A stretch of DNA of 64,000 nt from Escherichia coli (GCF_011045215.1 NZ_CP049201.1), one strand, 5' to 3'; positions 1 through 25,916 are shown, counted from the first letter of the stretch. Notes: generated from the letters alone by a model not told the origin. Program-made: numbers and translations.

Positions 1-1
1 T

Positions 2-478
2 TACAATTTACTCCTGTTGATTGATGTCGGTGAATCTGGTCAACACAAACAATCTTTTGCCACCATAGCCACACAAGTTTTTGAAAAAGGCTATGATTTC
101 AGGCACGGTATTGCACTGGCTATTCCTGTGCTCATTACTGAATTATTAACCCGGTTAATGTGGACATGTAAACAATGGTTATATCATAAAAAGCCCTTGA
201 CTGAGTGTGTACCTGTAGAAAATGATCCGGAGTTAAGAAGAATGTTACTGATTGCTCATGGAACGCTCTGTATGATTGATGCTGGTGATGCAGCATTTAG
301 ATCCGGTGGTAATTTGATGACGTTTCTGCTGAGAACTAATATGGTCGGCTGGGTTCGGTTTGGTATGCTTGCGTTAAAAGAAGTTCATGGGTTATACAAC
401 ACAGGTCATATTGATGTTGATTCGGTTGATAAATATCTGGATACTGAATTAGAAAGATTATCATCTCATCTATACTAA
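2..478 (+). CDS. Hypothetical protein, C-terminal fragment; reading frame is open to the left window edge, so the 5' end is missing
   Basis: ORF track 17..478 begins at a TTG, but the same frame has no stop back to position 2. No recognisable motif. Lies inside the selC island. Confidence 0.4.
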   Translation, partial: YNLLLLIDVGESGQHKQSFATIATQVFEKGYDFRHGIALAIPVLITELLTRLMWTCKQWLYHKKPLTECVPVENDPELRRMLLIAHGTLCMIDAGDAAFRSGGNLMTFLLRTNMVGWVRFGMLALKEVHGLYNTGHIDVDSVDKYLDTELERLSSHLY

Positions 479-703
479 TCCCTCTGACAGGCCATTCTGC
501 TATAAAGACATGGGATGAATGATAATGATTGTCGGCGCTTTTTTCACGAAGGAAAGGGTAGTGACAGCCAGGTTTACAATGTACCGCTGCATATGTGGCG
601 GTTGACTATATCGGCTTCACGGTTTTCAGGATAAAGCATTAATCAGTAGTCCTGTATTAAGTATATCTGCCTCAGGCGAACATACTGTATTTTATAAATT
701 TTT

Positions 704-2308
704 ATGAAAAACAACCTTCTTTTTATATTCCTGTCGCGGATTAATAATGATAAAAGTATTGTGTTATCTGTGATTGTTTTTACGCTTGCTAATATGATTG
801 TATCATCAGGTGCACATCTGATTTATCGGGTATTATTCTTTACCCTGACTCTCCTTATTATCAAGAAGATAAAGTTATTTACGCTGCGTTTGATTCTTGC
901 TTTTCCGTTCACGTTACTGACTGCTGCAGATATCAGTATCAGCCTGTATTCATGGTGTACATTTGGCACAACATTTAATGATGGTTTTGCAATCAGTATC
1001 CTTCAGACAGATCCTGATGAAGTAATAAGAATGTTCAGGATGTATGTTGTTTATGTTATCGCATTTATTATCCTCTTTTTATTGTTCTTCTGTTCAGCAA
1101 TAAATAAAACGTCCTCATTGCCATCGGAAAAGGTCACGGTAATTACATTTTTATTGTTAATTACAGTAACGTTATATTCTTCCTTTCAGTTTGCGTTGAA
1201 GAAACAGTATCAAATAAATGAAGTTGATCCTTACATAGTCGCTTCCCGGTTTGCCACATATACCCCTTTCTTTAATCTGAACTATTTTGCACTGGCCGCA
1301 AAGGAGCATCAGAGATTAATGACGATTGCTGATACCATACCTCACTACGAGCTGATGATTACAGACAATAATATTGATGAATTTGTACTGATCATCGGTG
1401 AATCAGCAAGGACTGATAACATGTCCATTTACGGGTATTCGCGCCCAACCACACCAGAACTTCAGAAACAGAAATCACGGCTGAAACTGTTCACTCAGGC
1501 AATCAGTGGCGCACCTTACACTGCGCTGGCTGTTCCTCTGGCGTTGTCTGCCGATAGTGTACTGCATCATGATATCCGTAATTACCCTGATAACATTATC
1601 AACATGGCGAATCAGGCAGGGTTCGATACCTGGTGGCTCAGTGCGCAGTCCGCTTTCCGGCAGAACGGAACGGCTGTGGCCAGTATCGCCATACGGGCCA
1701 GAAACAGAATTTATGTCAGAGGCTATGATGAGTTACTGCTCCCACATCTGGCTGAAGCACTGAACAGTAATCCGGGAAGAAGGAAACTGATTGTTCTGCA
1801 TCTGACGGGCAGCCATGAACCAGTCTGCAGTAACTGGCCCAGAGATAAAGCCGTGTTTAAACCACTGGATACAGAAGAAGTCTGCTACGATAATTCCATT
1901 CATTATACCGACAGTTTGTTGGGGCGGGTTTTCGCCATGCTGGAAACGCGTCAGGCATCAGTCATGTATTTTTCAGATCACGGTCTGGAGTATGACCCGA
2001 CAAAAGAACATGCCTATCTTCATGGCGGAATAAAACCCAGCCAGCAGGCTTATCATGTTCCGATGTTTATCTGGTACAGCCCGGCTCTGGGAGAGCATGT
2101 CGATCGCCAGACGGTGAACAGCGTTTTTTCTACTGCGTATAATGATTATCTGATTAATGTATGGATGGGCGTAACCAGACCAGCTCAACCGAAAACGCCG
2201 GAGGAGGTGATCACCCGCTGGCAGGGGAAATCAAATGTTATTGATGCAAACCATAACGTGTTTGACTACAACGTATTACGAAAGAACTTTAATGAACCCC
2301 TGGAATAA
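704..2308 (+). CDS. Phosphoethanolamine transferase family protein (N-terminal multi-pass membrane region plus sulfatase-like catalytic domain; EptA/EptB/OpgE-like)
   Basis: 534 aa. Hydrophobic N-terminal third (e.g. LIIKKIKLFTLRLILAFPFTLL, VVYVIAFIILFLLFF). Periplasmic domain has the LIIGESARTDNMSIYGY motif typical of PEtN transferases, a candidate Thr nucleophile region (ISGAPYTALAVP) and a C-terminal HxxG-type region. Visibly AT-rich compared with the flanking core genes. Confidence 0.7.
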   Translation: MKNNLLFIFLSRINNDKSIVLSVIVFTLANMIVSSGAHLIYRVLFFTLTLLIIKKIKLFTLRLILAFPFTLLTAADISISLYSWCTFGTTFNDGFAISILQTDPDEVIRMFRMYVVYVIAFIILFLLFFCSAINKTSSLPSEKVTVITFLLLITVTLYSSFQFALKKQYQINEVDPYIVASRFATYTPFFNLNYFALAAKEHQRLMTIADTIPHYELMITDNNIDEFVLIIGESARTDNMSIYGYSRPTTPELQKQKSRLKLFTQAISGAPYTALAVPLALSADSVLHHDIRNYPDNIINMANQAGFDTWWLSAQSAFRQNGTAVASIAIRARNRIYVRGYDELLLPHLAEALNSNPGRRKLIVLHLTGSHEPVCSNWPRDKAVFKPLDTEEVCYDNSIHYTDSLLGRVFAMLETRQASVMYFSDHGLEYDPTKEHAYLHGGIKPSQQAYHVPMFIWYSPALGEHVDRQTVNSVFSTAYNDYLINVWMGVTRPAQPKTPEEVITRWQGKSNVIDANHNVFDYNVLRKNFNEPLE

Positions 2309-2364
2309 TTCGTTAAAGTAATTTACGACTCTATTCTTTTTTAAAGGAAACTTTCAGAAAATAA

Positions 2365-2385
2365 CCCCAGGGCGATAACCTGGGG
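2365..2385. terminator. Hairpin between the convergent PEtN-transferase and TPR-like genes; possible bidirectional terminator
   Basis: ccccagggcgataacctgggg: a 6-bp GC stem (cccagg/cctggg) flanked by A/T-rich sequence. Confidence 0.35.
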
Positions 2386-2454
2386 AAGGGGGTTTAGTGT
2401 GTTATTACTGGTGGATAAATTATTACTTGTTTGAAAAATACACTAATGCAATAT

Positions 2455-3498
2455 CTACTGATGCTGGATGCTTGAGTGTTTCATTCCTGCCGCTGAAAAC
2501 GGCAATATCCAGGGCCAGACATATTCACCGTTAATATTTCTGCATTTCTGTACAATTTCCTCAGAAAGTGTCTCATCAATTCTTTCCCACAACAACTTCT
2601 GCTGTCTTAAAATGCTTTCGCATATTTCGAAATCATCTTCCTGCATCAGCATTTCGGCGCATTTAATGATTTCTGCCCGTTCATGCAGCACAGAGGAATG
2701 GTTATAGAGCCAGTTTACAAACAGCAATGCTTCCGGATATTGTCCCCATAATGGTGAGTATGTTGCATAATAATCTTCGGCAGTATCCGGCCCGGCAGAA
2801 TAGTTATGCCATACAGCAAGAGGAAATGGATGCAGATTTCCGCACAGTATTTCTGCGATGTAAGTATTTGCCGTAAAGCCACGACGAAATGCAGTTGCAG
2901 CTTTTTCCAGTTCCCCATTAAGAAAATGCAGAAGGCCGAGTTCATACCAGTAAGGTGAAAATTCATCAGCGTACTCATTCAGTACACGGAAAGCTCGCTC
3001 ATGATCACCTGTTCGTAACAGTTCTGAACCCAACAACCAGCGGGTACCCTGATTATCTTCAGGATTGTATGCCAGTATTTTCTCAATGAGCATGATGGCA
3101 TCCTGATGACGTTGTAAATGTACATTTGCCAGGATTGCTGCATAAAGCGCGCGCAGATAAGGCCGGTTTTCGGGATGCATCCAGATGATTTCACCACTGA
3201 AACTTTCCGGGATGAGACGATTACCTGCCGCCAGTCCTTTAAGAGCGGCGTTCAGTGCCTTACGCGGGGCATTCTGCTCCAGAAATGCATATGCCAGATG
3301 AGCGTGTATATCAATAAAGTCAGGCTCCTGTTGAGCAAGGCGTCTGAGTTTGTTGATGTAACTCGCCTCACTGATTTCACCAGTATCGTATGTATCAAGC
3401 AGTTTTTCAAACTCCCCCGGTAATGGGCAAAACCAGGTATCCGGAAATACGAAACGCCCTTGGTTATCGTTTACTTTAAAGCGTAATTTGTCGTTCAT
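2455..3498 (-). CDS. Hypothetical protein with TPR-like helical repeats, function unknown
   Basis: 347-aa ORF with a clean start and an AT-rich upstream region. Ala/Leu-rich helical repeat character (e.g. ALKGLAAGNRL, YAAILANVHLQRHQDAIMLIEKILAYNPEDNQG, ELGLLHFLNGELEKAATAFRRG). No catalytic motif recognised. Confidence 0.55.
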   Translation of the reverse strand: MNDKLRFKVNDNQGRFVFPDTWFCPLPGEFEKLLDTYDTGEISEASYINKLRRLAQQEPDFIDIHAHLAYAFLEQNAPRKALNAALKGLAAGNRLIPESFSGEIIWMHPENRPYLRALYAAILANVHLQRHQDAIMLIEKILAYNPEDNQGTRWLLGSELLRTGDHERAFRVLNEYADEFSPYWYELGLLHFLNGELEKAATAFRRGFTANTYIAEILCGNLHPFPLAVWHNYSAGPDTAEDYYATYSPLWGQYPEALLFVNWLYNHSSVLHERAEIIKCAEMLMQEDDFEICESILRQQKLLWERIDETLSEEIVQKCRNINGEYVWPWILPFSAAGMKHSSIQHQ

Positions 3499-3850
3499 TT
3501 TCTGAGCCTGTAAAACGGATTGGACACAATCTGAAAAGCATAAAAGTCGTGATGTTGTGTATCAAGTCTTGTTTTTGTCCGGGATGAATGTTGTTTACAA
3601 TATCATCGACAGTGTTTTTATATGAGAATGAAAATTTATCTTTATCTGCATTCCAATGTATTGTGAATTGTCAGCTGAAACAGCATATTAATCGATTTTT
3701 TGATAATGGTGCTGAAATAACGACAGGATGATGATTGAAACTACTGGTATCAAAATTGTTAGCGGTCCATAATGGTGTGATGTTTTGAGATTGTTTATAG
3801 ATGCAATATTAAATATTTTGTCAAAAAACAAAAAATACCTAAAAATAAAG

Positions 3851-3888
3851 CATAAAAACAAAATTCCTCCGGACCAGGAGGCCGGAGG
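3851..3888 (-). terminator. Rho-independent terminator downstream of the integrase gene
   Basis: Stem cctccgg...ccggagg (3866-3888) followed on the minus strand by a T-rich run. Confidence 0.4.
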
Positions 3889-3928
3889 AGAATTTGTGGA
3901 TTGAGAGAAAATATCAGGACAAGTGCTC

Positions 3929-5119
3929 TTAACCCTGACTCTCTTGCTTAGAAAGCGAATCAATATAATCTGCGTACCACTGCATCATTTCACGGCGACC
4001 ATCGAGATACTGGGCATGATTATAGGTACCCCTGATGGCGTTTTTATCCACATGAGCTAACTGCATTTCAATCCAGGCGGAATTAAAGCCCTGTTCGTGC
4101 AGAATGGTACTCATGGTGTGTCTGAAACCGTGCCCTGTGAGTCTTCCCTTATATCCCAGTAATTCAATGACTTGGTTAATGCTTTCCTTACTAATTGGCT
4201 TGCGAGGATCGTTCCTACCGATAAAGACCAGAGGATGATGTTTTGTGATGGGTTCAAGTTGCTTAAATAGGGCAATGACCTGCTCAGAGAGCGGCACAAT
4301 ATGAGGTCGCTTCATCTTCATTACTTTTGCCGGAATCTCCCATAATTTTGTCTCAAAATCGATATCCTCCCAGCGTGCGAAACGTAATTCTTGTGTTCGT
4401 ACACCAGTTAACATAATGATCTGAGTAGCTGTCTTAGTGATGATACTTCCGGTATAACCCGCCAGATCGTTGAGGAAGTGGGGAAGTTCATTAGCAGTAA
4501 GAAAGGGAAAATGTACTTTTTTCGGTGTAGCTAAAGCACAGGCAAGATCGGGAGCAGGGTTGTAGTCTGCCCGACCAGTAACAATTGCATAGCGGAACAC
4601 TTCACCACAGCGCTGGCGGACTTTGCGCATTTTCTCCAGAGCTCCACGTTTTTCCATTTTACGCAGTGCTTCCAGTAACTCCATTGGTTTGATTTCGGCG
4701 ATAGGGCGTTTGCCAATGTAGGGAAAAATGTCTTTTTCAAAGGTATCAATGATTTCATCACGATAGCGTAATGACCACCGATCGGCTTTTGACTGATGCC
4801 ATTCGCGAGCAATGGCCTCGAACGTATTTTTCAAACTCATTTGTTGCGCGATTTTTTCTTCTTTTTTTGCCACCCCTGGATCGCCTCCAGCAGCGAGGAT
4901 TTTTCTGGCTTCGCTGCGTTTTTCACGAGCGTCGGCTAGCGTTACATCGGGGTATACGCCAATAGAAAGCATCTTTTCTTTACCAGCAAAGCGGTACTTC
5001 ATACGCCAGTATTTAGAACCATTAGTGTTAATCAGTAGATACATACCGCCGCCATCAGCAAGTTTATAGGGCTTTTCTTTTGGTTTTGCGGTTTTCACTT
5101 TAATATCGGTTAATGCCAT
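3929..5119 (-). CDS. int: P4-family tyrosine integrase (site-specific recombinase)
   Basis: 396 aa. C-terminal catalytic region with the conserved R...HxxR...Y residues (LTGHGFRHTMSTIL, IRGTYNHAQY). Same orientation as, and directly downstream of, the tRNA 3' end, the canonical layout for tRNA-targeting islands. Confidence 0.9.
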   Translation of the reverse strand: MALTDIKVKTAKPKEKPYKLADGGGMYLLINTNGSKYWRMKYRFAGKEKMLSIGVYPDVTLADAREKRSEARKILAAGGDPGVAKKEEKIAQQMSLKNTFEAIAREWHQSKADRWSLRYRDEIIDTFEKDIFPYIGKRPIAEIKPMELLEALRKMEKRGALEKMRKVRQRCGEVFRYAIVTGRADYNPAPDLACALATPKKVHFPFLTANELPHFLNDLAGYTGSIITKTATQIIMLTGVRTQELRFARWEDIDFETKLWEIPAKVMKMKRPHIVPLSEQVIALFKQLEPITKHHPLVFIGRNDPRKPISKESINQVIELLGYKGRLTGHGFRHTMSTILHEQGFNSAWIEMQLAHVDKNAIRGTYNHAQYLDGRREMMQWYADYIDSLSKQESQG

Positions 5120-5417
5120 GACATCCTCCGGCTTTTAATGAATTCATGTTCCTGAGGGGGACTTCTGCCAGTAATTAACCTGATACCCCCAATGCACCCC
5201 TTGTATAACAAAGATGTTGTTGAAAGCCGTTGTTATATATCATATTTTACCAATTATGGGGGTGCTGATATTTCAATAGGAAATAATACCCCCTAAAGTA
5301 CCCCCAAAAGCAACTTGATACGGGGTGAAGTCGGTTGACTTCTGGATACAAAGGAATCCTGATATACAAGGGATTAGAAGGGGTGGTTGACATCGGGGGA
5401 GTTCAGAAGATGTTAAT

Positions 5418-5512
5418 TGGCGGAAGATCACAGGAGTCGAACCTGCCCGGGACCGCTGGCGGCCCCAACTGGATTTGAAGTCCAGCCGCCTCACCGGAGA
5501 CGACGATCTTCC
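5418..5512 (-). tRNA. selC: tRNA-Sec (selenocysteine tRNA)
   Basis: 95-nt reverse-complement match to the E. coli selC sequence (GGAAGATCGTCGTCTCCGGTGAGGCGGCTGGACTTCAAATCCAGTTGGGGCCGCCAGCGGTCCCGGGCAGGTTCGACTCCTGTGATCTTCCGCCA) as I remember it; the 3' CCA is at 5418-5420. Confidence 0.95.
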
Positions 5513-5804
5513 GCGCCTCGATTGCTACATGGAGGCGGGGCGCATTATAGCTACTTCCTTGAGTTTCTACATCCCCCAGATCAGTTTTTTCCGCCTAATA
5601 CACGCAGCGTATTATCACGAAAGCATTATAGTTCATATAAAACCCATATTTTACAATGATATATGAGCGGAATTAACGCTACCACGATCACATAAAACAA
5701 GAATCATAAATTAATAACCAGATATCGGAATATTCGCTCTCACAGGGATGGTTTACAAAATGCGTTATCGGTCTCAGCACCCCTATAGCATCAAGGAAAA
5801 GCAG

Positions 5805-7187
5805 ATGAAGAGTGAAGTGTTGTCCGTTAAAGAGAAAATTGGTTATGGCATGGGAGACGCCGCCAGCCACATTATTTTCGATAACGTAATGTTATATATG
5901 ATGTTCTTTTATACCGATATTTTTGGCATTCCTGCCGGATTTGTCGGAACCATGTTTTTGGTCGCTCGTGCACTGGATGCGATTTCCGATCCTTGCATGG
6001 GGTTGTTGGCCGATCGAACGCGCTCTCGCTGGGGTAAATTTCGTCCGTGGGTACTGTTTGGCGCACTGCCATTCGGGATCGTCTGTGTACTGGCCTATAG
6101 CACGCCAGATCTCAGTATGAACGGCAAAATGATCTATGCAGCAATTACTTACACCCTACTTACCTTACTTTATACCGTCGTCAATATCCCTTACTGCGCA
6201 TTGGGTGGTGTAATCACCAATGAACCGACTCAGCGTATCTCGCTGCAATCCTGGCGTTTTGTGCTGGCGACCGCGGGAGGCATGCTCTCTACTGTTCTGA
6301 TGATGCCACTGGTTAATTTAATTGGTGGTGATAATAAACCACTCGGTTTCCAGGGCGGTATCGCGGTCCTTTCCGTGGTGGCATTCATGATGCTGGCATT
6401 CTGTTTTTTCACCACTAAAGAACGCGTTGAAGCACCACCTACAACGACGTCTATGCGGGAAGATTTACGTGATATCTGGCAAAACGACCAGTGGCGGATT
6501 GTCGGTTTACTAACCATTTTCAATATCCTGGCGGTGTGCGTACGCGGTGGAGCGATGATGTATTACGTCACATGGATTTTGGGTACGCCGGAAGTGTTTG
6601 TCGCTTTTCTCACCACTTATTGCGTGGGTAACCTGATTGGTTCCGCACTGGCAAAACCGCTGACCGACTGGAAATGTAAAGTCACTATCTTCTGGTGGAC
6701 GAACGCCCTGCTGGCAGTGATTAGCCTCGCGATGTTCTTTGTTCCCATGCAGGCCAGCATCACTATGTTTGTCTTCATCTTCGTGATTGGTGTGTTGCAT
6801 CAACTGGTGACACCTATCCAGTGGGTAATGATGTCCGATACCGTCGACTACGGCGAGTGGTGCAATGGTAAACGCCTGACCGGGATCAGTTTTGCTGGCA
6901 CGCTGTTTGTGCTCAAACTGGGGTTGGCCTTCGGCGGCGCTCTTATCGGCTGGATGCTGGCTTATGGCGGATATGATGCGGCAGAAAAAGCGCAGAACAG
7001 CGCCACGATTAGCATCATTATTGCGCTATTCACGATTGTTCCGGCGATCTGTTATTTGCTGAGCGCGATTATCGCTAAACGCTACTACTCACTCACGACG
7101 CACAATCTGAAAACCGTTATGGAACAGCTGGCTCAGGGTAAACGCCGTTGCCAGCAACAATTCACCTCTCAAGAAGTGCAGAACTAA
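5805..7187 (+). CDS. yicJ: GPH-family sugar:cation symporter (putative xyloside transporter)
   Basis: 460 aa from MKSEVLSVKEKIGYGMGD; 12-TM MFS/GPH profile; directly upstream of yicI. Confidence 0.85.
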   Translation: MKSEVLSVKEKIGYGMGDAASHIIFDNVMLYMMFFYTDIFGIPAGFVGTMFLVARALDAISDPCMGLLADRTRSRWGKFRPWVLFGALPFGIVCVLAYSTPDLSMNGKMIYAAITYTLLTLLYTVVNIPYCALGGVITNEPTQRISLQSWRFVLATAGGMLSTVLMMPLVNLIGGDNKPLGFQGGIAVLSVVAFMMLAFCFFTTKERVEAPPTTTSMREDLRDIWQNDQWRIVGLLTIFNILAVCVRGGAMMYYVTWILGTPEVFVAFLTTYCVGNLIGSALAKPLTDWKCKVTIFWWTNALLAVISLAMFFVPMQASITMFVFIFVIGVLHQLVTPIQWVMMSDTVDYGEWCNGKRLTGISFAGTLFVLKLGLAFGGALIGWMLAYGGYDAAEKAQNSATISIIIALFTIVPAICYLLSAIIAKRYYSLTTHNLKTVMEQLAQGKRRCQQQFTSQEVQN

Positions 7188-7196
7188 GGAACGGCA

Positions 7197-9515
7197 ATGA
7201 AAATTAGCGATGGAAACTGGTTGATTCAACCTGGCCTCAATTTGATTCACCCGCTTCAGGTGTTCGAGGTTGAACAGCAGGGTAATGAAATGGTGGTCTA
7301 TGCTGCCCCCCGTGATGTGCGTGAACGTACCTGGCAGCTTGACACGCCTTTATTTACGCTGCGCTTTTTCTCCCCACAGGAAGGTATTGTCGGTGTGCGG
7401 ATTGAGCATTTTCAGGGGGCGCTGAATAACGGTCCTCATTATCCGCTCAATATTTTGCAGGACGTGAAGGTCACAATCGAAAACACAGAACGTTATGCTG
7501 AGTTTAAAAGTGGCAACTTAAGCGCGCGTGTCAGCAAAGGTGAGTTCTGGTCACTGGATTTTCTGCGCAACGGCGAACGTATTACCGGTAGTCAGGTGAA
7601 AAATAATGGCTACGTGCAGGACACGAATAATCAACGAAATTATATGTTTGAGCGGCTTGATCTTGGCGTTGGCGAAACAGTTTATGGTCTGGGAGAGCGC
7701 TTTACTGCCCTGGTGCGCAATGGTCAGACGGTAGAAACCTGGAACCGGGACGGCGGCACAAGTACTGAACAGGCGTATAAAAATATCCCGTTCTACATGA
7801 CTAACCGTGGTTATGGGGTACTGGTCAATCATCCCCAATGCGTCTCTTTTGAAGTGGGATCGGAGAAAGTCTCCAAAGTGCAGTTCAGCGTTGAGAGTGA
7901 ATATCTCGAATACTTTGTTATCGACGGCCCGACGCCGAAAGCGGTACTTGATCGTTATACCCGCTTTACTGGTCGTCCGGCGCTGCCGCCCGCGTGGTCC
8001 TTCGGTCTGTGGCTAACCACTTCATTTACCACCAACTACGACGAAGCGACGGTAAATAGCTTTATTGATGGTATGGCGGAACGCAATCTGCCGCTGCATG
8101 TTTTCCACTTTGACTGTTTCTGGATGAAAGCCTTCCAGTGGTGCGATTTTGAGTGGGACCCGCTGACTTTCCCGGACCCGGAAGGGATGATCCGCCGCCT
8201 GAAAGCGAAAGGGCTGAAAATCTGCGTCTGGATTAACCCCTATATTGGGCAAAAATCCCCCGTCTTTAAAGAGTTACAAGAGAAAGGTTATTTACTCAAA
8301 CGCCCGGACGGTTCGCTGTGGCAGTGGGATAAATGGCAGCCAGGTCTGGCGATTTATGACTTTACCAATCCGGATGCCTGCAAATGGTACGCCGACAAAC
8401 TGAAAGGTCTGGTCGCGATGGGCGTTGATTGCTTTAAGACCGACTTTGGCGAACGTATCCCAACCGATGTTCAGTGGTTTGACGGTTCCGATCCGCAGAA
8501 AATGCATAACCATTATGCGTACATCTACAACGAACTGGTGTGGAACGTGCTCAAGGACACCGTTGGTGAGGAAGAAGCTGTCTTGTTTGCCCGCTCGGCC
8601 TCCGTCGGTGCGCAGAAATTCCCGGTACACTGGGGTGGCGACTGTTACGCTAACTACGAATCAATGGCGGAAAGCCTGCGCGGTGGTTTGTCTATTGGCC
8701 TTTCAGGTTTTGGCTTCTGGAGCCACGATATCGGCGGCTTTGAGAATACCGCGCCGGCGCACGTTTACAAACGCTGGTGCGCGTTTGGTTTGCTCTCCAG
8801 CCATAGTCGTTTACATGGCAGCAAATCTTATCGTGTGCCGTGGGCCTACGATGATGAGTCCTGTGATGTGGTGCGCTTCTTCACGCAACTGAAATGCCGC
8901 ATGATGCCGTATCTGTATCGTGAAGCTGCGCGTGCGAACGCGCGGGGTACGCCGATGATGCGGGCCATGATGATGGAGTTCCCGGACGATCCGGCTTGTG
9001 ATTACCTTGACCGTCAATACATGCTAGGCGACAACGTGATGGTTGCTCCGGTGTTCACTGAGGAGGGCGAGGTGCAGTTCTACTTGCCGGAAGGTCGCTG
9101 GACACACCTGTGGCACAACGATGAGCTCGACGGTAGTCGCTGGCATAAACAGCAGCACGGCTTCCTGAGTCTGCCCGTTTATGTGCGTGATAACACCCTA
9201 CTGGCGCTGGGCAACAACGATCAACGTCCCGATTACGCGTGGCACGAAGGTACGGCATTCCAGCTCTTTAAACTGCAAGACGGGCATGAAGCCGTCTGTG
9301 AAGTGCCCGCTGCTGACGGTTCGGTGATCTTTACTTTAAAAGCAGCACGTACTGGCAACACGATTACTGTGACTGGTGCGGGCGAGGCGAAGAACTGGAC
9401 GCTGTGCTTGCGCAATGTTGTGAAAGTAAATGGTCTGCAAGGCGGTTCGCAGGCTGAAAGTGAGCAGGGACTGGTGGTGACTCCTCAAGGGAATGCGCTG
9501 ACAATTACGGTGTAA
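7197..9515 (+). CDS. yicI: Alpha-xylosidase, glycoside hydrolase family 31
   Basis: 772 aa with GH31 signature regions ([18 protein letters not shown]); length and synteny match YicI. Confidence 0.9.
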
Positions 9516-9567
9516 TCTATTGATGGAATGCCGGGTACGTCTGAGTCGTACCCGGCGAGATTGATGT

Positions 9568-11277
9568 TTACTGCACCAGCTCTGCCGACGTAACTTCACC
9601 GCTGGAAACGATGCCAGCATTCATGGTTTGAGTCACTTGCTGCTTTGCGGCATTCACGGCATGCAATTGCCCGCTAACCGTAGGTTTCAGCGGGACATTG
9701 GCCTGAATATCGCCACTGGCGGTAAGCTGAATATTGCCGTCGCCAGTCAACGGTAATTCAGGCCATCCCCAATGTTGCAAAATATTCACCGGCACACCGC
9801 GTCCATTCAGGCTGATATGGGTCTGACGTTGTGGCGTTTGTGAAACACTGGCGGTGGCTTCCAGAATGCCTTTTTCAGTAAATGCACTCAGTTCGCTGAT
9901 ATTCACCGTGCTGCTGTTGGCGGTTAGCGCCAGCGATGGACGACGGACATCAACACGATTAAACGTCGCGGCGGCGGCATTCAGATTCGCCGAACCACTC
10001 CAGACGCCCCATTTATGATCGGTAACCAGCGTCAGGTTGGCACCGTAACCATCGAGCGCGGTGAGCTGCCACGGGAAGTCAGGGTCGATATCAATGATCA
10101 GATTGCGGCTGGCGCTAAATCTCTTCAGTTGCAGGCTGTTTAACCAACCCGGTGTCGTTTCCATCCACAACTGTTGCCAGTTTTTCGGCAAGGTATATTC
10201 CAGCCCGGCAATTGCCGCATCATCAAGGAGTAACGTTTTCCCGTCACGCAGCCAGTTCCCTGACGTTCTGACCATACCCCCTTCCCAGCGGCTGGTGAAC
10301 TGGCGCAGCGCTACGCCCTGCGGGGAAAATTCCGCGTTTATAATCGGGTCAAATAAATGCAGCGAACCATAAATGAACTCGCTGGCGTTCATCGACAGTT
10401 TGCCTTCTTGTGTCTGCCAGTCATCTTTACTGAAGGTCATGTTGCGCAAGCTGAGATCGAGGTCGGTCACCGCCCAGTCCGGACCTTGCAGACGAGCATC
10501 GATCACTTCCAGGCGACCAATCTGCAACGACGGGACAGAGCGTAATGGCGCAAAGAAGTCGGCTAGCGATTTTTCGCTTTGTAGACGGATATCCGCCATG
10601 CGCAGATTTTCCACTTGCCAGCTGCCGTCGGCGTTACGCTGCGCGTTTCCGGTTAATGTCCCGCGCGCGATGTCGGCACCCAGGTTAGTCAGCGTAACGC
10701 GATCGTTATCAATACTGCCTTCAATCAGTACATTGGTGGCAGGAATATCATTGAGCGAAAGCGATCCGGCACTAAACTGAATCTGCGCCTTCGTACCCAG
10801 CACTTTACCGGCTTCTGGTGACCACGGAACCACGCCGCCATTTACCCGCTGCGCGCTCAGTTTCCATTCGCTATTCGGGCTATTAAACGCCATATCACGC
10901 AGTTGCAGACGATCGGCTTTGAACGGTAGCGGCGCGGTCTGGTCGGTGAGATTCAGCGTTCCGTTTTCCAGCAGGATGGTATCGACATGGCGTGGTTCGG
11001 TCAGTTGCCGACTGCTTAGCGCAATGTCGACACTTTTTGCCACCAGGGTCGCGGGCTGACCATCACGACCAAATGTGACGTTCTCCAGCACGATATGAGA
11101 TGGCGCGGAAAAACGGTGATCCATCGCCCCGAAGGCCAGATGATAGTCGCTATTCTCGGAAACCCATGCGCTGATATGTTCTGCTCCCCAGCGGGTTTGC
11201 AGAAGAAAATAGAGGCCAGCGATCACCACTAACAGAGCGATGAGAATGTAGAGAAGCAGCTTCCCAATAAATTTCAT
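9568..11277 (-). CDS. yicH: AsmA-family membrane protein
   Basis: 569 aa from MKFIGKLLLYILIALLVVIAG (N-terminal anchor); conserved position between yicI and xanP. Confidence 0.85.
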   Translation of the reverse strand: MKFIGKLLLYILIALLVVIAGLYFLLQTRWGAEHISAWVSENSDYHLAFGAMDHRFSAPSHIVLENVTFGRDGQPATLVAKSVDIALSSRQLTEPRHVDTILLENGTLNLTDQTAPLPFKADRLQLRDMAFNSPNSEWKLSAQRVNGGVVPWSPEAGKVLGTKAQIQFSAGSLSLNDIPATNVLIEGSIDNDRVTLTNLGADIARGTLTGNAQRNADGSWQVENLRMADIRLQSEKSLADFFAPLRSVPSLQIGRLEVIDARLQGPDWAVTDLDLSLRNMTFSKDDWQTQEGKLSMNASEFIYGSLHLFDPIINAEFSPQGVALRQFTSRWEGGMVRTSGNWLRDGKTLLLDDAAIAGLEYTLPKNWQQLWMETTPGWLNSLQLKRFSASRNLIIDIDPDFPWQLTALDGYGANLTLVTDHKWGVWSGSANLNAAAATFNRVDVRRPSLALTANSSTVNISELSAFTEKGILEATASVSQTPQRQTHISLNGRGVPVNILQHWGWPELPLTGDGNIQLTASGDIQANVPLKPTVSGQLHAVNAAKQQVTQTMNAGIVSSGEVTSAELVQ

Positions 11278-11397
11278 GGTCTTCCATCCCGTGAAATGCA
11301 CATAAGGGAGTTATGCACGATTTACGCGCAATCCTCAAGGCGGGAATGGTGAAAGAGGTGAGACTGCGGCGGTAATTATCTTACCGCCGCCAGTGAA

Positions 11398-12789
11398 TTA
11401 CTGTTTTTCTGGTGGGAAAATCAGATTCAGCACGATGGCAGTAATACCGCCCGCGGCGATCCCGGAGGAGAGCAGGTTTTTCAGCCATTCAGGGGCAAAC
11501 TGCAAAATCAGCGGCTGCTGAGACACGCCCAGACCAACCGCCAGCGACAGCGCGATAATCAGAATCGCCCGACGGTTCAGCGGCTCACGAGACACAATGC
11601 GCACACCGGAGGCGGCAATGGTGCCAAACATTACAAGCGTTGCGCCGCCCAGAACCGGTTCTGGAATGTGTTGTACAAAACCGCTCACTGCCGGGAACAG
11701 ACCCAGCACGATCAACATCAGCGCGACGACAAAACCGACATAGCGGCTGGCAACACCGGTCAACTGGATCACTCCGTTGTTCTGCCCGAAGCAGGAGTTC
11801 GGGAAGGTGTTAAACACCGCCGAAACAAACGAGTTCAGGCCGTTTGCCAGCACGCCGCCTTTCAGGCGTTTCATGTACAGCGGACCGGACACTGGCTGTT
11901 CGGAAACGTCAGAGGTCGCCGTGATATCGCCAATGGTTTCCAGCGAAGTGATCATAAAGACCAGCATCAGCGGCAGCAGCAGACTCCATTCAATGCCAAG
12001 ACCGTAATAGAGCGGCGTTGGCACCATAATCAGTTCTTGCGTCATCGGTTCGTTGCTTTCTGGCAACATGCCCATAAACCACGCCAGCGCATATCCGGCC
12101 GCCATCGCAATCACCAGTGAGGCCACGCGTAAGTAAGGGTTACGTTGACGGTTAAGCAGGATAATTAAGGCTAAGACCACGCCTGCCAGCAGCAGATTTT
12201 TCGGTGCGCCGAAGGTGTTATCGCTCATGGCTGCGTAACCGCCGCCAATTGAGGTCAGCCCCACCTGAATTAGCGACAGGCCGATAATCATCACCACAAC
12301 GCCAGAAACCAGCGGCGTAATAATGCGGCGCGCCAGATGCAGAACACGGGAGATCACCATCTCGGTGCAACTTGCCAGCATCAACGTGCCGAACAAAGCC
12401 GCCATCATGGTAGGAACATCAGCACCACCGGTTTTCAGCGCGGTACCGCCCATAATCAGCGGGGCAACAAAGTTGAAGCTGGTGCCCTGAATAGACAACA
12501 GCCCGGAGCCAACCGGACCCCAGGCCTTAATTTGAATAATCGATGCCACACCGGAGGCAAACAGCGACATACTAATAATGTGTTGCGTGTCTTGTGCCGG
12601 TAAACCCAGCGCCTGGCAGATTAATAGCGCTGGCGTGATCACCGCAACGAACATCGCCAGCAAATGCTGACAGGCGGCAAACAGGGTTTGAGGAAGCGGC
12701 GGACGATCTTCAAGACGGTAAATCAGTTCGCTGTTTTGAGTCTGCGCAACCGGTTGCGCATTTTCTGACTCGAGGGTGGAAACAGACAT
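11398..12789 (-). CDS. xanP: Xanthine permease (NCS2 family)
   Basis: 463 aa from [12 protein letters not shown]; polytopic NCS2 profile; synteny. Confidence 0.85.
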
Positions 12790-14449: not shown

Positions 14450-16531
14450 TTACGCATTCGAGTAACGTTCCGTCTCCGGCATCCAGCGTTCTATCAGGGC
14501 TTTTGCCTGTTGTGGGTAACGTTCGTGAATATGGCGTGCCAGGCGCTGAACTTCCGGGATCATCGCCTGATCGCGCAGTAAATCCGCCACTTTAAATTCA
14601 GCATTACCCGTCTGACGAGTGCCTAACAATTCGCCAGGGCCGCGAATCTCCAGATCTTTTTGTGCAATCACAAACCCGTCGTTGCTGTCGCGCAGCACTT
14701 GCAGGCGAATTTGCGCCGTTTTAGAAAGCGGCGTTTTATAGAGCAGCACGCAGTGAGAAGCCACCGCGCCACGACCTACACGCCCACGTAGCTGGTGCAA
14801 CTGCGCCAGACCCAGACGCTCCGGGTTTTCGATAATCATCAGACTGGCGTTAGGCACATCAACGCCGACTTCAATAACGGTTGTGGCAACCAGCAGGTGT
14901 AGCTCACCTTGTTTAAACGACGCCATCACCGCCTGTTTCTCGGCAGGTTTCATCCGCCCGTGTACCAGGCCAACATTCAACTCTGGTAGCGCCAGTTTCA
15001 ACTCTTCCCAGGTAGCTTCCGCCGCCTGCGCTTCCAGCAATTCCGACTCTTCAATCAACGTACAAACCCAGTACGCCTGACGACCTTCAGTCATGCAGGC
15101 GTGGCGCACGCGGTCAATGATGTCGGTACGGCGAGTATCAGGAATAGCGACCGTAGTCACTGGCGTGCGGCCTGGCGGCAGCTCATCTATCACCGAGGTG
15201 TCGAGATCAGCATACGCAGTCATCGCCAGCGTGCGGGGGATCGGCGTGGCGGTCATGATCAACTGATGCGGATGGAAGCCTTGCTGCTGGCCTTTCTCCC
15301 ACAATGCCAGACGCTGATGCACGCCAAAACGATGCTGTTCATCGATAATCACCAGCGCCAGACCGTTAAACTGCACCTGTTCCTGGAAGATGGCGTGCGT
15401 ACCAACAATCATCTGCACCTGACCGCTGGCGATGGCTTCCTGCTGAGACAGTCGCGCTTTACCTTTCTGCTTACCGGCGAGCCAGCCCACTTCGATACCG
15501 AGCGGTGCAAACCAGTTGCGGAAGTTATTGGCGTGCTGTTCGGCGAGTAATTCGGTTGGTGCCATCAATGCCACCTGTTTGCCGTGGGCAATCGCACGCA
15601 GCGCGGCGAGGGCAGCGACCAGCGTTTTACCGGAACCTACATCGCCCTGTACCAGGCGCATCATCGGCACATCCAGCGCCATATCGCGCTCGATCTCCGC
15701 CACCACGCGAGCCTGAGCGCCCGTTGGCTTGAACGGTAAGGCGGCAAGAAGTTTATTTTTCAGCGTGTCATTGGCGCTCAGCGGCTGGGCATGGAAACGT
15801 TGCGCTCCGGCGCGTAAGGCTAACATGCTGAGGTTATGCGCCAGCAGTTCTTCCAGAATCAGACGACGTTGCGCCGGATGCTGCCCGGTTTCCAGATCGC
15901 TAAGTTGCAGCGTCGGCGGCGGGCGGTGCAAAGTGCGCAACGCTTCCGGTAGCGTCATCATTCCTTGTGACAGTTCCGGCGGCAGGAGTTCTTCAATGGC
16001 GCAGGTGTCGAGCAGATCCAGCGCCTGGTCGGTTAATTTACGCAGCGTGGCCTGCTTTACGCCTTCGGTTGTTGGATAAACCGGCGTGAGCGTTTCCTGC
16101 AACTCTGGCGTACTGAGATCGCCCTGCACGCGGTATTCCGGGTGGATCATTTCCGCGCCATATTTACCGCGCTTTGCTTCGCCATAAGCCAGTACACGGC
16201 GGCCCGTCGCCAGGCTATTTTTCATTGCCGCGTTGAAGTTGAAAAAGCGCATGGTGAGAATGCCGGAACCGTCGCTGATCTGGCAGGTCATCATCCGCCG
16301 ACCGCCGAAGGAGATATTGCAGTTCAGCACTTCGCCTTCCACCGTTGCATAAACGCCCGGCAGTAGTTCACCGATGGGGTAGAGATGGGTGCGATCTTCG
16401 TAGCGCAGGGGAAGGTGTAAGAGTAGATCCTGCACAGTCTGCAGGTTGATTTTCGCCAGCTTATTACTAAGCGCTGCGCCAACGCCCGTTAGGGAACTGA
16501 GCGGGACAGCATCTAACAGGCGACCTTTCAT
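14450..16531 (-). CDS. recG: ATP-dependent DNA helicase RecG
   Basis: 693 aa from MKGRLLDAVPLSSLTGVG; helicase motifs (GDVGSGKT Walker A, DEQH box). Confidence 0.95.
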   Translation of the reverse strand: MKGRLLDAVPLSSLTGVGAALSNKLAKINLQTVQDLLLHLPLRYEDRTHLYPIGELLPGVYATVEGEVLNCNISFGGRRMMTCQISDGSGILTMRFFNFNAAMKNSLATGRRVLAYGEAKRGKYGAEMIHPEYRVQGDLSTPELQETLTPVYPTTEGVKQATLRKLTDQALDLLDTCAIEELLPPELSQGMMTLPEALRTLHRPPPTLQLSDLETGQHPAQRRLILEELLAHNLSMLALRAGAQRFHAQPLSANDTLKNKLLAALPFKPTGAQARVVAEIERDMALDVPMMRLVQGDVGSGKTLVAALAALRAIAHGKQVALMAPTELLAEQHANNFRNWFAPLGIEVGWLAGKQKGKARLSQQEAIASGQVQMIVGTHAIFQEQVQFNGLALVIIDEQHRFGVHQRLALWEKGQQQGFHPHQLIMTATPIPRTLAMTAYADLDTSVIDELPPGRTPVTTVAIPDTRRTDIIDRVRHACMTEGRQAYWVCTLIEESELLEAQAAEATWEELKLALPELNVGLVHGRMKPAEKQAVMASFKQGELHLLVATTVIEVGVDVPNASLMIIENPERLGLAQLHQLRGRVGRGAVASHCVLLYKTPLSKTAQIRLQVLRDSNDGFVIAQKDLEIRGPGELLGTRQTGNAEFKVADLLRDQAMIPEVQRLARHIHERYPQQAKALIERWMPETERYSNA

Positions 16532-16536
16532 GGCAC

Positions 16537-17226
16537 TTACCCTGCAGCCTGCATGGTAGCCCACCAGTCGGCATCAGCTTCGATCTCGCCTTGCTGATTG
16601 ACGTGGGGGTAAGGCAGGCCTTTGCGTTTTGCGACTTTCGCCAGCACCGGATAGCCGCCTTCAAACAACAGGCGTTGTTGCTCTGCTTCCGGCAACATGC
16701 TGTTTTCACGCAGGTACATGCCTGCATTTTGCCGCTGACGCTGGGCTTCGTAAAGAATGAGGGCTGAGGCAACGGAAACATTCAGCGACTGCACCATGCC
16801 GATCATCGGAATGATGATGTCCTGATCCGCCAGGGCCAACGCTTCCTCAGTGATGCCCGTTTTCTCCTGACCCATCAAAATGCAGGTCGGGCGAGTGTAA
16901 TCAATTTCGCGAAAATCGACAGCGTTATCAGAAAGATGGGTTGCCAGAATTTGCATGCCCTGGCCTTTCAGATGGGTGACGGCATCGCCAATGGTGCGGT
17001 GCGTTTTCACCTGCACCCAACTGTTGCTACCCGCCGCCGCAGAGGCCATGGTACGCATGCGGCTACCAGGCCAGACGGCGTGAACTTCATGTACGCCAAC
17101 GGCATCTGCGGTACGAATAATCGCAGAAACGTTATGAGGTTTGTGGACCTGCTCCATGCAGACGGTCAGATCAGGCTGCCGCCTGGCGAGCATTTCGCAG
17201 ATGCGTGCATAACGTGTTGGGTTCAT
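16537..17226 (-). CDS. trmH: tRNA (guanosine18-2'-O)-methyltransferase
   Basis: 229 aa SpoU-family methyltransferase; operon position between spoT and recG. Confidence 0.9.
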   Translation of the reverse strand: MNPTRYARICEMLARRQPDLTVCMEQVHKPHNVSAIIRTADAVGVHEVHAVWPGSRMRTMASAAAGSNSWVQVKTHRTIGDAVTHLKGQGMQILATHLSDNAVDFREIDYTRPTCILMGQEKTGITEEALALADQDIIIPMIGMVQSLNVSVASALILYEAQRQRQNAGMYLRENSMLPEAEQQRLLFEGGYPVLAKVAKRKGLPYPHVNQQGEIEADADWWATMQAAG

Positions 17227-17232
17227 AAAACA

Positions 17233-19341
17233 TTAATTTCGGTTTCGGGTGACTTTAATCACGTCTGGCATCACGCGGATTTTGCGCATGATATTCGCCA
17301 GATGCACACGGTCACGAGCGGTCAGACGAATAAAGGCGCTGTAGACGCGACCATCTTTCTCTTCCGTATTCAAACTTTGAATATTCGAAGTCGTGGTGTT
17401 AATTGCCGCCGTCAGGTTTGCCAGCGCGCCCTGATGATTGAACATCTCCACCTTGATTTCGGTGATGAACTCCTGCGCCGTCTCTTTATCCCATTCCACA
17501 GCCATAAACTTCTCTGGCTCTTTCTGGTAGCCACGGATGTTACGGCAGGATTCATGGTGGATCACCAGACCTTTACCGGGGCTGACGTGGGCGATAATCG
17601 GGTCGCCAGGAATAGGGCGGCAGCATTTCGCAAAGGTGATCAGCACGCCATCGGCACCTTTAATGGGCAGATGTCCGTGACTTTGGGTTGCCGGTGGAAT
17701 GGAGGCGTCCCCATGTTGCAGATTTTTCGCGACCACCACGCTCATTGCGTTACCAAGTCCGATTTCTGCCAGCAGATCGTCAAGCGTTGCCAGCTTCATA
17801 CGATCCAGCTCGCGCTGAATATTTTCCTGCGGGATTTCATTGAGCTTACGGCTGCCACCCAACGCATGGTTGAGCAGACGACGGCCCAGACTAACGGAAT
17901 CATCACGCTTGAGGTTTTTCAGCAACTGACGAATTTTGGCGCGCGCTTTCGAGCTGACGACAAAGTTCAGCCACGCGGCATTCGGGCGAGCGCCCGGTGC
18001 GGTAATGATTTCAACGGTTTGACCGCTAGTAAGCGGCTGCGACAGCGGGTAAGGCTGGCGGTCGACGCGTGCGCCCACGCAGGCATGACCGATATCGGTA
18101 TGCACCGCATAAGCGAAGTCGACGGGCGTTGCACCGGCAGGCAGCTCGACAATGCGCCCTTCCGGTGTGAAAACGTAAATCTCATCCGGGAAGAGATCGG
18201 ATTTAACGCTCTCGATAAATTCAAACGAGCTACCGGCACTCTGTTGCAGCTCCAGCAGGCTTTGCATCCAGCGCTGGGCGCGGATTTGTGCGGTAGTACT
18301 GGTTTCGCCGTGCTCTTTATAAGCCCAGTGCGCGGCAACACCCATCTCCGCCATCTGGTCCATATCTTCGGTACGGATCTGGACCTCAACCGGCACACCG
18401 TGCGGGCCGATCATCGAGGTGTGCAAAGACTGATAGCCGTTCGCTTTTGGAATGGCGATATAGTCTTTCACGCGGCCCGGACGCGGCTTGTACAGGCTGT
18501 GCATCTGGCCCAGCACGCGATAACAGGTGTCAGAATCATTGACGATCACGCGGAAAGCGTAGATGTCCATGATTGAGTGAAAACGCTGCTCTTTGAGCAC
18601 CATTTTGCAGTAAATCGAATAAAGATGCTTTTCGCGACCACTGACGCGGCACGGTATTCCCGCTTCCTGCAAACGCCCTTCGATTTCAGAAAGAATCTTC
18701 TGGATCATCTCTTTACGGTTGCCGCGCGCGGCTTTCACCACTTCTTTGATTACGCGATAACGGTTGGGATACAGCGCCTCAAAACCCAGCTCTTCGAGTT
18801 CGGTTTTAATGTGGTGGATACCTAAACGGTGCGCCAGCGGGCTATAAATTTCGAGAGTTTCACGGGCGATGCGGCGACGTTTGTCCGGGCGAAGTGAGCC
18901 CAGCGTGCGCATGTTGTGGGTACGGTCGGCAAGTTTGATGAGGATGACGCGGATATCCTGCACCATCGCCATAATCATCTTGCGAAAGTTTTCGGCCTGC
19001 GCCTCTTTCTTATCGCGGAACTTGAGTTTATCAAGTTTCGACACCCCCTCTACCAGCTCGGCGACGCTTTTACCAAAAAGCTGTTCCATGTCCTGGTAGG
19101 TGGCGGGAGTATCTTCAATCACGTCATGCAGCAGCGCTGCCATAAGCGTTTCATAGTCGAGTTTCATCTCGGCCAGAATGCAGGCAACAGCTACCGGGTG
19201 CGTGATATAGGGTTCACCGCTTGAACGTGTTTGCCCCTCGTGAGCATCACGTGCAACGAGATACGCCTGCCGCAGACGCTTGATTTGGTCTTCCGGCAGG
19301 TAGTTTTGAATCAGCTGATTCAGGCTTTCAAACAGATACAA
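17233..19341 (-). CDS. spoT: Bifunctional (p)ppGpp synthase/hydrolase SpoT
   Basis: 702 aa; HD-domain histidines (HDVIEDT), RelA/SpoT synthetase domain, TGS and ACT regions. Confidence 0.95.
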   Translation of the reverse strand: MYLFESLNQLIQNYLPEDQIKRLRQAYLVARDAHEGQTRSSGEPYITHPVAVACILAEMKLDYETLMAALLHDVIEDTPATYQDMEQLFGKSVAELVEGVSKLDKLKFRDKKEAQAENFRKMIMAMVQDIRVILIKLADRTHNMRTLGSLRPDKRRRIARETLEIYSPLAHRLGIHHIKTELEELGFEALYPNRYRVIKEVVKAARGNRKEMIQKILSEIEGRLQEAGIPCRVSGREKHLYSIYCKMVLKEQRFHSIMDIYAFRVIVNDSDTCYRVLGQMHSLYKPRPGRVKDYIAIPKANGYQSLHTSMIGPHGVPVEVQIRTEDMDQMAEMGVAAHWAYKEHGETSTTAQIRAQRWMQSLLELQQSAGSSFEFIESVKSDLFPDEIYVFTPEGRIVELPAGATPVDFAYAVHTDIGHACVGARVDRQPYPLSQPLTSGQTVEIITAPGARPNAAWLNFVVSSKARAKIRQLLKNLKRDDSVSLGRRLLNHALGGSRKLNEIPQENIQRELDRMKLATLDDLLAEIGLGNAMSVVVAKNLQHGDASIPPATQSHGHLPIKGADGVLITFAKCCRPIPGDPIIAHVSPGKGLVIHHESCRNIRGYQKEPEKFMAVEWDKETAQEFITEIKVEMFNHQGALANLTAAINTTTSNIQSLNTEEKDGRVYSAFIRLTARDRVHLANIMRKIRVMPDVIKVTRNRN

Positions 19342-19359
19342 GGGCGACCCGCTTTGTGA

Positions 19360-19635
19360 TTAACGACGACCTTCAGCAATAGCGGTAACGGCTTGTAATT
19401 CAGCGGCTTCCTGCTCTTGCTGTTCCTGGCGTTCGCGAACGTCGAGGATCTGGTTGTTGATCAGACCTTCTTCGATTTCGCGCAGCGCGATTACAGTGGT
19501 TTTATCGTTTTCTTCCGGTACCAGCGGATCCTTTCCGCCTACCTGCATCTGACGAGCGCGACGCGCGGCGACCAGTACCAGGTCAAAACGGTTACCAATT
19601 TTCTCTACAGCGTCCTGAACAGTTACGCGTGCCAT
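19360..19635 (-). CDS. rpoZ: RNA polymerase omega subunit
   Basis: 91 aa, [29 protein letters not shown]. Confidence 0.95.
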
Positions 19636-19689
19636 ACTTAAAAAGCTCCACAGGTGAAGAAATGACTGGGCATGATACTGAAATCAGGT

Positions 19690-20451
<762 letters not shown>

Positions 20452-20478
20452 AGTGATTCACTGCAATAAAGACGATTC

Positions 20479-22867
<2,389 letters not shown>

Positions 22868-23158
22868 GGTTCTCTCCCTAAAAATCTGTCTGGCAGGGTA
22901 GCGATTTGTGCGTATTGTCACGATTGAGATTTTTTAAGGTGAGGGGGAATTGATAACTTGTAGTTATGTGAAATCGCTATTTTCTGTAGCGGAGATGCAT
23001 TCTTCTGACTTCTTGTCTGAGAAAATGCATAAGAAAAAATAGGTTAAAACTGAGGGGTGGAAAAGAAAGGTGCAATGTTTAGCTATTGTATTCACCGCAC
23101 CTGGACTTTGGCTTACGCATCGGGTGTCTCAATCAACAAAAAGAGTTTTTAGTTTCTG

Positions 23159-23983: not shown

Positions 23984-24028
23984 TGCCCACTCCATGTGAT
24001 ATCGATTGCAAAGAAAGTAAATCTGTAA

Positions 24029-25911: not shown

Positions 25912-25916
25912 TTTTT

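Follow-up and report, generated by a model that had tools for sequence, protein, structure and literature searches.

The selC gene, which encodes tRNA-Sec, is the best-known island hotspot of Escherichia coli, so that finding it occupied is nothing unusual. Here, we analyzed a 64,000-nucleotide stretch of the E. coli genome GCF_011045215.1 (NZ_CP049201.1), referred to at its full length as the window, whose first 5,512 positions hold selC and the adjoining end of a genomic island. The closest described element is the Tia pathogenicity island (Tia-PAI; also PAI tia or ROD-20) of enterotoxigenic E. coli (ETEC) strain H10407, which occupies 46 kb at selC (Fleckenstein 2000; Crossman 2010; reviewed in PMC7545054). 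The setC-yicJ interval containing selC represents hotspot #1 for defense-carrying mobile islands of E. coli and was occupied in 228 of 905 genomes (Hochhauser et al. 2023). Bunzi, in turn, is a two-gene anti-phage system in which BnzA carries a TerB domain and transmembrane (TM) helices and which was linked to ‘membrane surveillance’ (Millman et al. 2022). The same authors described a dynamin-like defense system (‘Eleos’) related to the Leo operon of H10407 and questioned the assignment of Leo to virulence.

Our analysis indicates that positions 1-5512 very probably represent the tRNA-proximal end of a mosaic, horizontally acquired island, inserted in the 3′ end of selC via a P4/CP4-type integrase and related to the Tia-PAI, with Bunzi in its variable slot. 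The element is not of a new kind: it is a mosaic Tia-PAI relative with LAA-like distal content (after the locus of adhesion and autoaggregation, LAA), in which Bunzi replaces leoABC. Most of its visible cargo relates to the cell envelope or to defense against phages.

Insertion at the 3′ end of selC

The selC gene of the window is identical to K-12 selC at 95 of 95 nucleotides, confirming the exact match claimed in an earlier, sequence-only reading of this DNA, and it is the sole tRNA gene that ARAGORN detected in positions 1-12000 (Table 1). Homology to K-12 stops at base 5417/5418, exactly at the selC 3′ end. Profiling of GC content across this junction, as that reading had proposed, revealed a drop on the island side, with values of 0.34-0.47 across positions 1-5500 versus 0.50-0.57 in the backbone from about position 6000 onward. 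To the right of selC, ordinary E. coli backbone follows in the order yicJ-yicI-yicH-xanP. From position 5513, it is 98-99.5% identical to E. coli genomes (99.5% for the best complete genome) and 97-98% identical to K-12, in agreement with the claim that the conserved backbone resumes with yicJ beyond selC.

The claimed absence of the cargo from the K-12 backbone also held: homology ends at 5417, and the K-12 selC-setC interval contained no remnant of the integrase gene (int), the tetratricopeptide repeat (TPR) protein gene or the phosphoethanolamine (PEtN) transferase-family gene. The island genes are thus not conserved at this site in all E. coli, K-12 being without them and related int genes being present in only 2010 of the 5,426 complete RefSeq E. 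coli genomes that we searched. The 24-nt attachment (att) core TTCGACTCCTGTGATCTTCCGCCA, which forms the selC 3′ end, has a single copy within the 64-kb window. In related, complete islands it recurs at the distal end, exactly in H10407 and with one mismatch in 14EC029, and is followed in both by the sequence that lies behind selC in K-12 (99.8% identity over 636 bp). This delimits islands of exactly 45,262 bp in H10407 and 39,672 bp in 14EC029 and shows that the family has a classical attL/attR structure, with K-12 as the true empty site. Insertion at selC, as initially proposed, is thereby borne out. Both distal ends carry a CP4-type module comprising a YeeP GTPase, an antirestriction protein, RadC and a YeeU/CbtA pair. 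Under the island model, the signature of the distal junction of the Bunzi variant would be TTCGACTCCTGTGATCTTCCGCCA followed by AAATGCCTCTCCTGACG, located between cdiB and setC.

Two side observations concern the site itself. The ‘empty’ selC-setC interval of K-12 holds the pseudogene yicT (contig L003, 10426-10557), and in H10407 and 14EC029 its counterpart, immediately beyond the distal repeat, bears the annotation of a RhuM-family remnant (contig L012, 19975-20136), so that the K-12 site, too, carries the scar of an older element. Moreover, two draft genomes with an identical island (L018 and L019) show a single-base difference within selC, at the position equivalent to window 5486, which is either a true tRNA-Sec variant or a sequencing error.

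The island beyond the left edge of the window

An exact copy of the window's TPR protein is encoded on no fewer than 23 contigs from draft assemblies of E. coli, and these contigs are colinear with window positions 1-12000. Within the island part (1-5512), the relatives are 0-9 bases away from the window; for most of them the count is just three, and all three differences fall in the PEtN gene (E216N, L439F). The adjoining 6.5 kb of backbone, by comparison, holds 62-99 differences (1-1.6%), the divergence beginning 0.1-0.8 kb beyond selC. When the relatives are compared with one another, 9.2 kb of island contain 0-3 differences and 8 kb of backbone 3-73. A near-identical island next to diverged backbone indicates repeated acquisition of an island far younger than its hosts, for which site-specific integration is the simplest account.

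The contigs of the relatives extend leftward by at least 36 kb beyond the part shared with the window, in line with the earlier claim that the island continues past the left edge. On this side they carry bnzB and bnzA, followed by a tia homologue whose product is 90% identical in amino acid sequence to Tia of H10407. Further content includes IS21, an IS4-family element and perC; an 893-aa AAA_11/AAA_12 helicase with DUF2726 (MkoA-like, 5e-44); a NERD-UvrD helicase (PADLOC C3a187, 1e-138); an Ail/Lom outer-membrane protein; orphan cdiA-CT and immunity modules; and a cdiB-cdiC-cdiA-cdiI locus with a cdiA product of 3075 aa. The distal segment of the relatives is ~95% identical to part of the LAA/PAI-ICL3-type islands of O91:H21 Shiga toxin-producing E. 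coli (STEC). The sequence-only reading had seen no type III secretion or aerobactin cargo, and neither these genes nor shiA were found in the window or across ~36 kb of identical relatives.

A predicted Bunzi system in the variable slot

Profile matches identify the truncated open reading frame (ORF) at the left edge as the C-terminal part of BnzB. It gave no match in Pfam or NCBIfam and was identified by PADLOC alone, aligning to positions 346-502 of the 504-position BnzB profile (PDLC03834) with an E-value of 6.4e-65. Positions 1-478 showed 0 mismatches to full-length bnzB of seven draft E. coli genomes, in which bnzA, itself outside the window, sits directly upstream of bnzB. The full-length BnzB (499 aa) and BnzA (555 or 562 aa) of these relatives matched their PADLOC families at 2.5e-200 and 3.4e-188, respectively, and their BnzA carries a glycine-rich TM segment and a TerB-like region. 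From these features, E. coli bnzAB is predicted to act as a membrane-associated abortive or surveillance-type anti-phage system.

Complementarily, a search of 5.8 billion proteins returned just 18 relatives of the truncated ORF, the best of which, with 71% identity, is the closest BnzB found outside E. coli. In other contigs, these relatives form the last gene of a small cassette located among restriction-modification (R-M), McrBC, AbiJ and WYL genes, and their upstream partners are BnzA according to PADLOC. The E. coli Bunzi proteins, in turn, fall into a 90% cluster of 16 sequences, annotated as ‘hypothetical protein’, on ~130 contigs. Among the complete RefSeq genomes, we detected neither the Bunzi-bearing island variant nor any blastn match (word size 11) to window positions 1-700. 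In the parts of the supplementary tables of Hochhauser et al. 2023 that were searched, no entry for ‘Bunzi’ was present.

When E. coli BnzB was searched by tblastn against phages and plasmids, only distant matches were obtained, the best (51.5%) on a Vibrio plasmid. The plasmid matches comprised 491 plasmids (270 from Enterobacter, 58 from Salmonella, 41 from Klebsiella and others), 436 of them predicted to be conjugative; all were below 60% identity and mostly covered part of the protein. A BnzB-like domain thus seems common on enterobacterial conjugative plasmids. As a separate observation, frameshifts or small deletions, each at another position, break bnzB into two ORFs in four unrelated contigs (L004, 9025-10528; L006, 2390-3906; L007, 8971-10774; L017, 13021-14528), one of which is an E. 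coli relative (200 + 143 aa). The gene may be costly and have been inactivated repeatedly, or the assemblies may be in error.

Comparison of island variants revealed sharp bounds for the region that bnzAB occupies: homology extends up to the tia stop codon and resumes 14 nt before the start of the PEtN gene. A small ORF upstream of the PEtN gene is intact in two other variants, described below, and decayed in the window, where strong homology to the other variants begins at position 690. Three fillings of this slot were found. The genes leoCBA are present in H10407, TL-14, the ST131 strain 751 and F2_407_2_2, and LeoA, LeoB and LeoC score as PADLOC Leo families. A WYL regulator together with the PADLOC candidates PDC-M09A and PDC-M40B and a YkgJ-type protein occupies the slot in AH19B041 (at selC) and W2-5 (at pheV), and this cassette is decayed in 14EC029. 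The third filling, bnzAB, characterizes the window variant; the small ORF is intact in the leoABC and WYL variants. As judged by profile matches, all three fillings are known or candidate defense systems, which fits the selC interval as defense-island hotspot #1.

It is conceivable, albeit doubtful, that the tia-PEtN interval serves specifically as a site where membrane-associated anti-phage systems are exchanged, and that its conserved neighbors, the outer-membrane protein Tia and the PEtN transferase, join with the slot in a single module of phage resistance at surface and membrane. If this were true, much of the ‘Tia pathogenicity island’ would be a defense island rather than a virulence island. 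In practical terms, the interval offers a small, well-bounded slot in which new defense cassettes could be mined, and the island is a source of a native E. coli Bunzi system on which the mechanism can be studied.

The selC-proximal scaffold

The segment 690-5512 forms one block beside selC in 69 of the complete genomes, with at most 96.3% identity to the window. Further genomes carry the block in interrupted form, for example by Tn10 in TL-14, IS3 in H10407 and IS903B in F2_407_2_2. The same module is found at selC in H10407 (beside leoABC-tia), TL-14, ST131 strain 751, F2_407_2_2, 14EC029 and AH19B041. The scaffold of the family reads selC, int, TPR, PEtN transferase, variable slot and tia, and H10407 shows the order selC, int, TPR, PEtN transferase, leoA, leoB, leoC, tia.

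The integrase matched NF007246 over residues 3-388 (E-value 1e-93), and its parts match CP4-like arm-binding, CPS-53 core-binding and XerC-like catalytic domains in the PDB. Its translation shows the recombinase motifs TGVRTQEL, HGFRHT, LAHV and GTYNH, in keeping with the catalytic residues R, K, H-x-x-R, H and Y of the family. The protein is 100% identical to the integrase of strain TL-14, and the int genes of O157:H7 genomes are 90.5% identical to that of the window. As claimed in the sequence-only reading, the P4-type integrase gene has the same orientation as selC; it does not follow selC directly, since a 298-bp spacer lies between them. Judging by its family, the integrase would recombine attP of a circular island form with the 24-nt core TTCGACTCCTGTGATCTTCCGCCA, and this recombination would rebuild an intact selC beside int and leave a partial copy at the far end of the island.

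Four of the 12 copies of GGGGGT in the window fall within the selC-int spacer, where 0.06 would be expected. The spacer also contains the 21-mer TTTGGGGGTACTTTAGGGGGT (5288-5308, minus strand), and Saile et al. reported an identical repeat in GIselC17584/1 and EPI-I. Based on these counts, the G5(T) motifs are plausible candidates for arm-type binding sites of the integrase. The spacer is likewise a candidate promoter region for int; a scan for sigma-70 promoters returned 17 sites versus 14 expected, that is, not above chance.

The TPR protein matched Pfam TPR_16 and ANAPC3 with E-values of about 7e-5, and its AlphaFold model (predicted local distance difference test, pLDDT, 92.5) is an all-alpha TPR superhelix. 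Foldseek searches with this model returned generic TPR matches only and no functional lead. The 90% cluster of the protein comprises 1952 members from E. coli and Salmonella, and the family, whose members measure ~340 aa, occurs on mobile elements of several proteobacteria. Within the Tia-type selC island family, the TPR gene is a conserved partner of int. Separately, we observed a 50%-identical homologue inside an SXT/R391-like conjugative element (JGI metagenome contig L054, 6001-8327), where it sits between setCD (FlhCD-like) and an AAA_22 ATPase gene, with which it may form a conserved two-gene unit.

The PEtN-transferase-family protein matched the NCBIfam families P_eth_NH2_trans (1e-46) and CptA (2e-41). 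Its best score was 159.6 bits against a cut-off of 500, and all 19 NCBIfam families stayed far under their curated cut-offs. Scores this far below the cut-offs of EptA, EptB, CptA and MCR identify it as a member of the superfamily outside the named orthologue groups. Residues 43-471 align with Neisseria EptA (NmEptA, 5fgn), and E233, T273, H371, D425, H426 and H451 correspond to EptA E240, T280, H383, D452, H453 and H465, which we take, following the EptA and MCR-1 literature, to be the metal (Zn) ligands and the threonine nucleophile. With a catalytic site that appears complete, the protein is probably active and would presumably decorate an envelope glycolipid. The gene is present in 511 of the complete genomes, at selC, pheV and other sites, always with at most 94.5% identity to the window allele. 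A protein look-up returned no exact match on record, because the window allele differs from those of the relatives by E216N and L439F. PEtN-transferase genes were reported at every tRNA site studied by Saile et al.

Table 1. Features in positions 1-5512 of the window, with the evidence used to assign them.
Feature	Position	Strand	Evidence
bnzB 3′ end (C-terminal 158 of 499 aa; gene cut by the left edge)	1-478	+	PADLOC
Right-hand slot junction, decayed small-ORF remnant	479-703	.	Alignment to other variants
PEtN-transferase-family membrane protein, 534 aa (N-terminal TM and sulfatase-fold domain)	704-2308	+	NCBIfam and NmEptA alignment
Terminator-like hairpin between the convergent PEtN and TPR genes	2365-2385	-	Consensus scan, weak
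TPR protein, 347 aa	2455-3498	-	Pfam TPR_16/ANAPC3 and AlphaFold model
Terminator-like hairpin downstream of int	3866-3881	-	Consensus scan, weak
P4/CP4-type tyrosine integrase, 396 aa, apparently intact	3929-5119	-	NCBIfam NF007246
selC-int spacer, 298 bp, G5(T) motif cluster	5120-5417	.	Motif count
24-nt att core TTCGACTCCTGTGATCTTCCGCCA, selC 3′ end, copy at the tRNA-proximal junction	5418-5441	-	
selC, tRNA-Sec, anticodon UCA, intact, integration target	5418-5512	-	ARAGORN and Rfam RF01852 (83.8 bits)

Alternative explanations

Several points weigh against reading positions 1-5512 as the end of a mobile, Bunzi-bearing island of the Tia type. The distal repeat of the selC 3′ end, by which the sequence-only reading had proposed to check the island, was found in the related H10407 and 14EC029 islands, whereas for the Bunzi variant neither the distal end nor its direct repeat came into view, the relatives having been followed to cdiB, over ~36 kb. 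The complete bnzAB and the distal content are predicted for the genome of the window from its near-identity to other strains. The PEtN protein scores far below all curated NCBIfam cut-offs, those of EptA, EptB, CptA and MCR included. Present-day mobility is itself deduced, neither an excisionase nor a circular form having been observed, and the island may have spread by homologous recombination with breakpoints near selC.

Another reading is a fixed, immobile remnant of an old selC island that is passed on vertically or by homologous recombination of its flanks and whose integrase has no current role. The missing excisionase and the decay of the small ORF at 479-703 are compatible with such a remnant, as is the frequency with which related islands carry insertions and pseudogenes (IS3, IS903B, Tn10, an internal stop in the PEtN gene and the split bnzB of L017). 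The integrase, however, is of full length and has all catalytic motifs. Furthermore, 0-9 differences in 5.5 kb and 0-3 in 9.2 kb of island versus up to 1.6% in the backbone, with divergence setting in within 0.1-0.8 kb of selC, correspond to the pattern predicted by site-specific acquisition. We thus consider the remnant improbable. Its integrase also relates the element to two other classes of selC occupants. A P4-like phage satellite or prophage would account for an integrase of the P4/CP4 family, and E. coli is reported to harbor P4-like satellites at hotspot #1 (selC). Yet, the Pfam families of the genes called in the ~36 kb of identical relatives include no capsid, tail, primase-helicase alpha or Sid/Psu/Delta-type genes; the content consists of IS elements, helicases, outer-membrane proteins, cdiBCAI and defense genes, and complete related islands end in the CP4-type module of YeeU/CbtA, antirestriction and RadC genes rather than in phage genes, making a satellite or prophage highly improbable. 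Even less credible is a variant of the enterocyte effacement locus (LEE) or of SHI-2, the classical selC islands, with its hallmark genes further left. The integrases are closely related, with that of O157:H7 at 90.5% identity, and the arm repeat is common to islands that share sequence with SHI-2. In SHI-2-type islands, however, int is followed by shiA, where the TPR gene is found here; the 36 kb of identical relatives contain no type III secretion system or iuc/iut genes; and the module matches the Tia-PAI at 92-99%. Overall, the Tia-PAI-related island integrated at selC remains the reading that we strongly favor.

Other loci in the window

Elsewhere in the window, a 1.3-kb insertion relative to K-12 lies at 26620-27920, between pyrE (ending at 26618) and slmA (27921-28559, minus strand). 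It contains an ORF for a 323-aa reverse transcriptase (26904-27875, plus strand) with the motif YCDDMTF and a PADLOC RT_Ec107-like match (E-value 3e-132). The insertion looks like retron Ec107, which is described at the pyrE-ttk (slmA) site. No match to it was obtained in Rfam at the gathering score, and the msr/msd RNA was not located. The lipopolysaccharide core (waa) locus at 37750-43180 is not of the K-12 type, as only fragments of 64-70% identity align. Its genes appear to be waaG, waaP, an alpha-1,3-galactosyltransferase gene, waaY, a second GT8 gene, a GlcNAc transferase gene (PRK15484) and waaL, an order that fits the R3 core type. A JUMPstart element is located upstream of waaQ at 34796-34834. 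Finally, the dinD-yicC interval (15741-26619), which corresponds to hotspot #2 for defense islands in Hochhauser et al. 2023, is empty and colinear with K-12.

Comparison with described systems

Among described systems, the leuX element of K-12 (intB-yjgX) repeats the arrangement of a tRNA gene, a P4-type integrase gene and a PEtN-transferase-family gene. Its proteins, in contrast, are distant paralogues, with amino acid identities of 43% for intB and 30% for yjgX, and both genes are pseudogenes in K-12. More is shared with GIselC17584/1 and the LAA/PAI-ICL3-type islands of LEE-negative STEC (Schmidt 2001; Saile 2018; Montero 2017), which integrate at selC or pheV, have the core TTCGACTCCTGTGATC and the repeat TTTGGGGGTACTTTAGGGGGT in common with the window and carry a PEtN-transferase-family gene a few kilobases from int. 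In the LAA/PAI-ICL3-type islands, the likeness extends, left of the window in the relatives, to the NERD-UvrD and large AAA helicases, PerC, the Ail/Lom protein and the two-partner-secretion/contact-dependent inhibition segment, which is ~95% identical (O91:H21). GIselC17584/1 differs by shiA beside int, an EcoHK31I R-M system further in and the lack of Bunzi, while ibrAB, iha and lesP of the LAA-type islands were not seen in the relatives of the window. With respect to Bunzi as described by Millman et al. 2022, the window ORF matches the C-terminal third of BnzB and the relatives match both genes at full length; the differences are the ‘hypothetical’ annotation of the E. coli proteins and the fact that 158 codons only lie in the window.

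The Tia-PAI of H10407 shares with the window its insertion site, the 24-nt core and the order and orientation of int, TPR and PEtN genes, all colinear, with nucleotide identities of 98.7% over int and selC and 92.3% over the TPR and PEtN genes. The tia homologue (90% amino acid identity) also recurs beyond the slot in the relatives, outside the window. In contrast, leoABC (4.8 kb) of H10407 is replaced by bnzAB (3.6 kb), and to the left of tia the relatives have IS21, IS4, helicases and cdiBCAI, where H10407 has a type I R-M system and other genes. Given the replacement of leoABC by bnzAB, the island is a relative of the Tia-PAI and not the Tia-PAI itself. The initial suggestion of a different, poorly characterized island therefore stands for the combination with Bunzi cargo, which is uncharacterized, and falls for the scaffold, which is known from the Tia-PAI (PMC7545054). 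The position of Bunzi exactly where the classical Tia-PAI carries leoABC supports a re-reading of the ETEC LeoABC region as anti-phage cargo.

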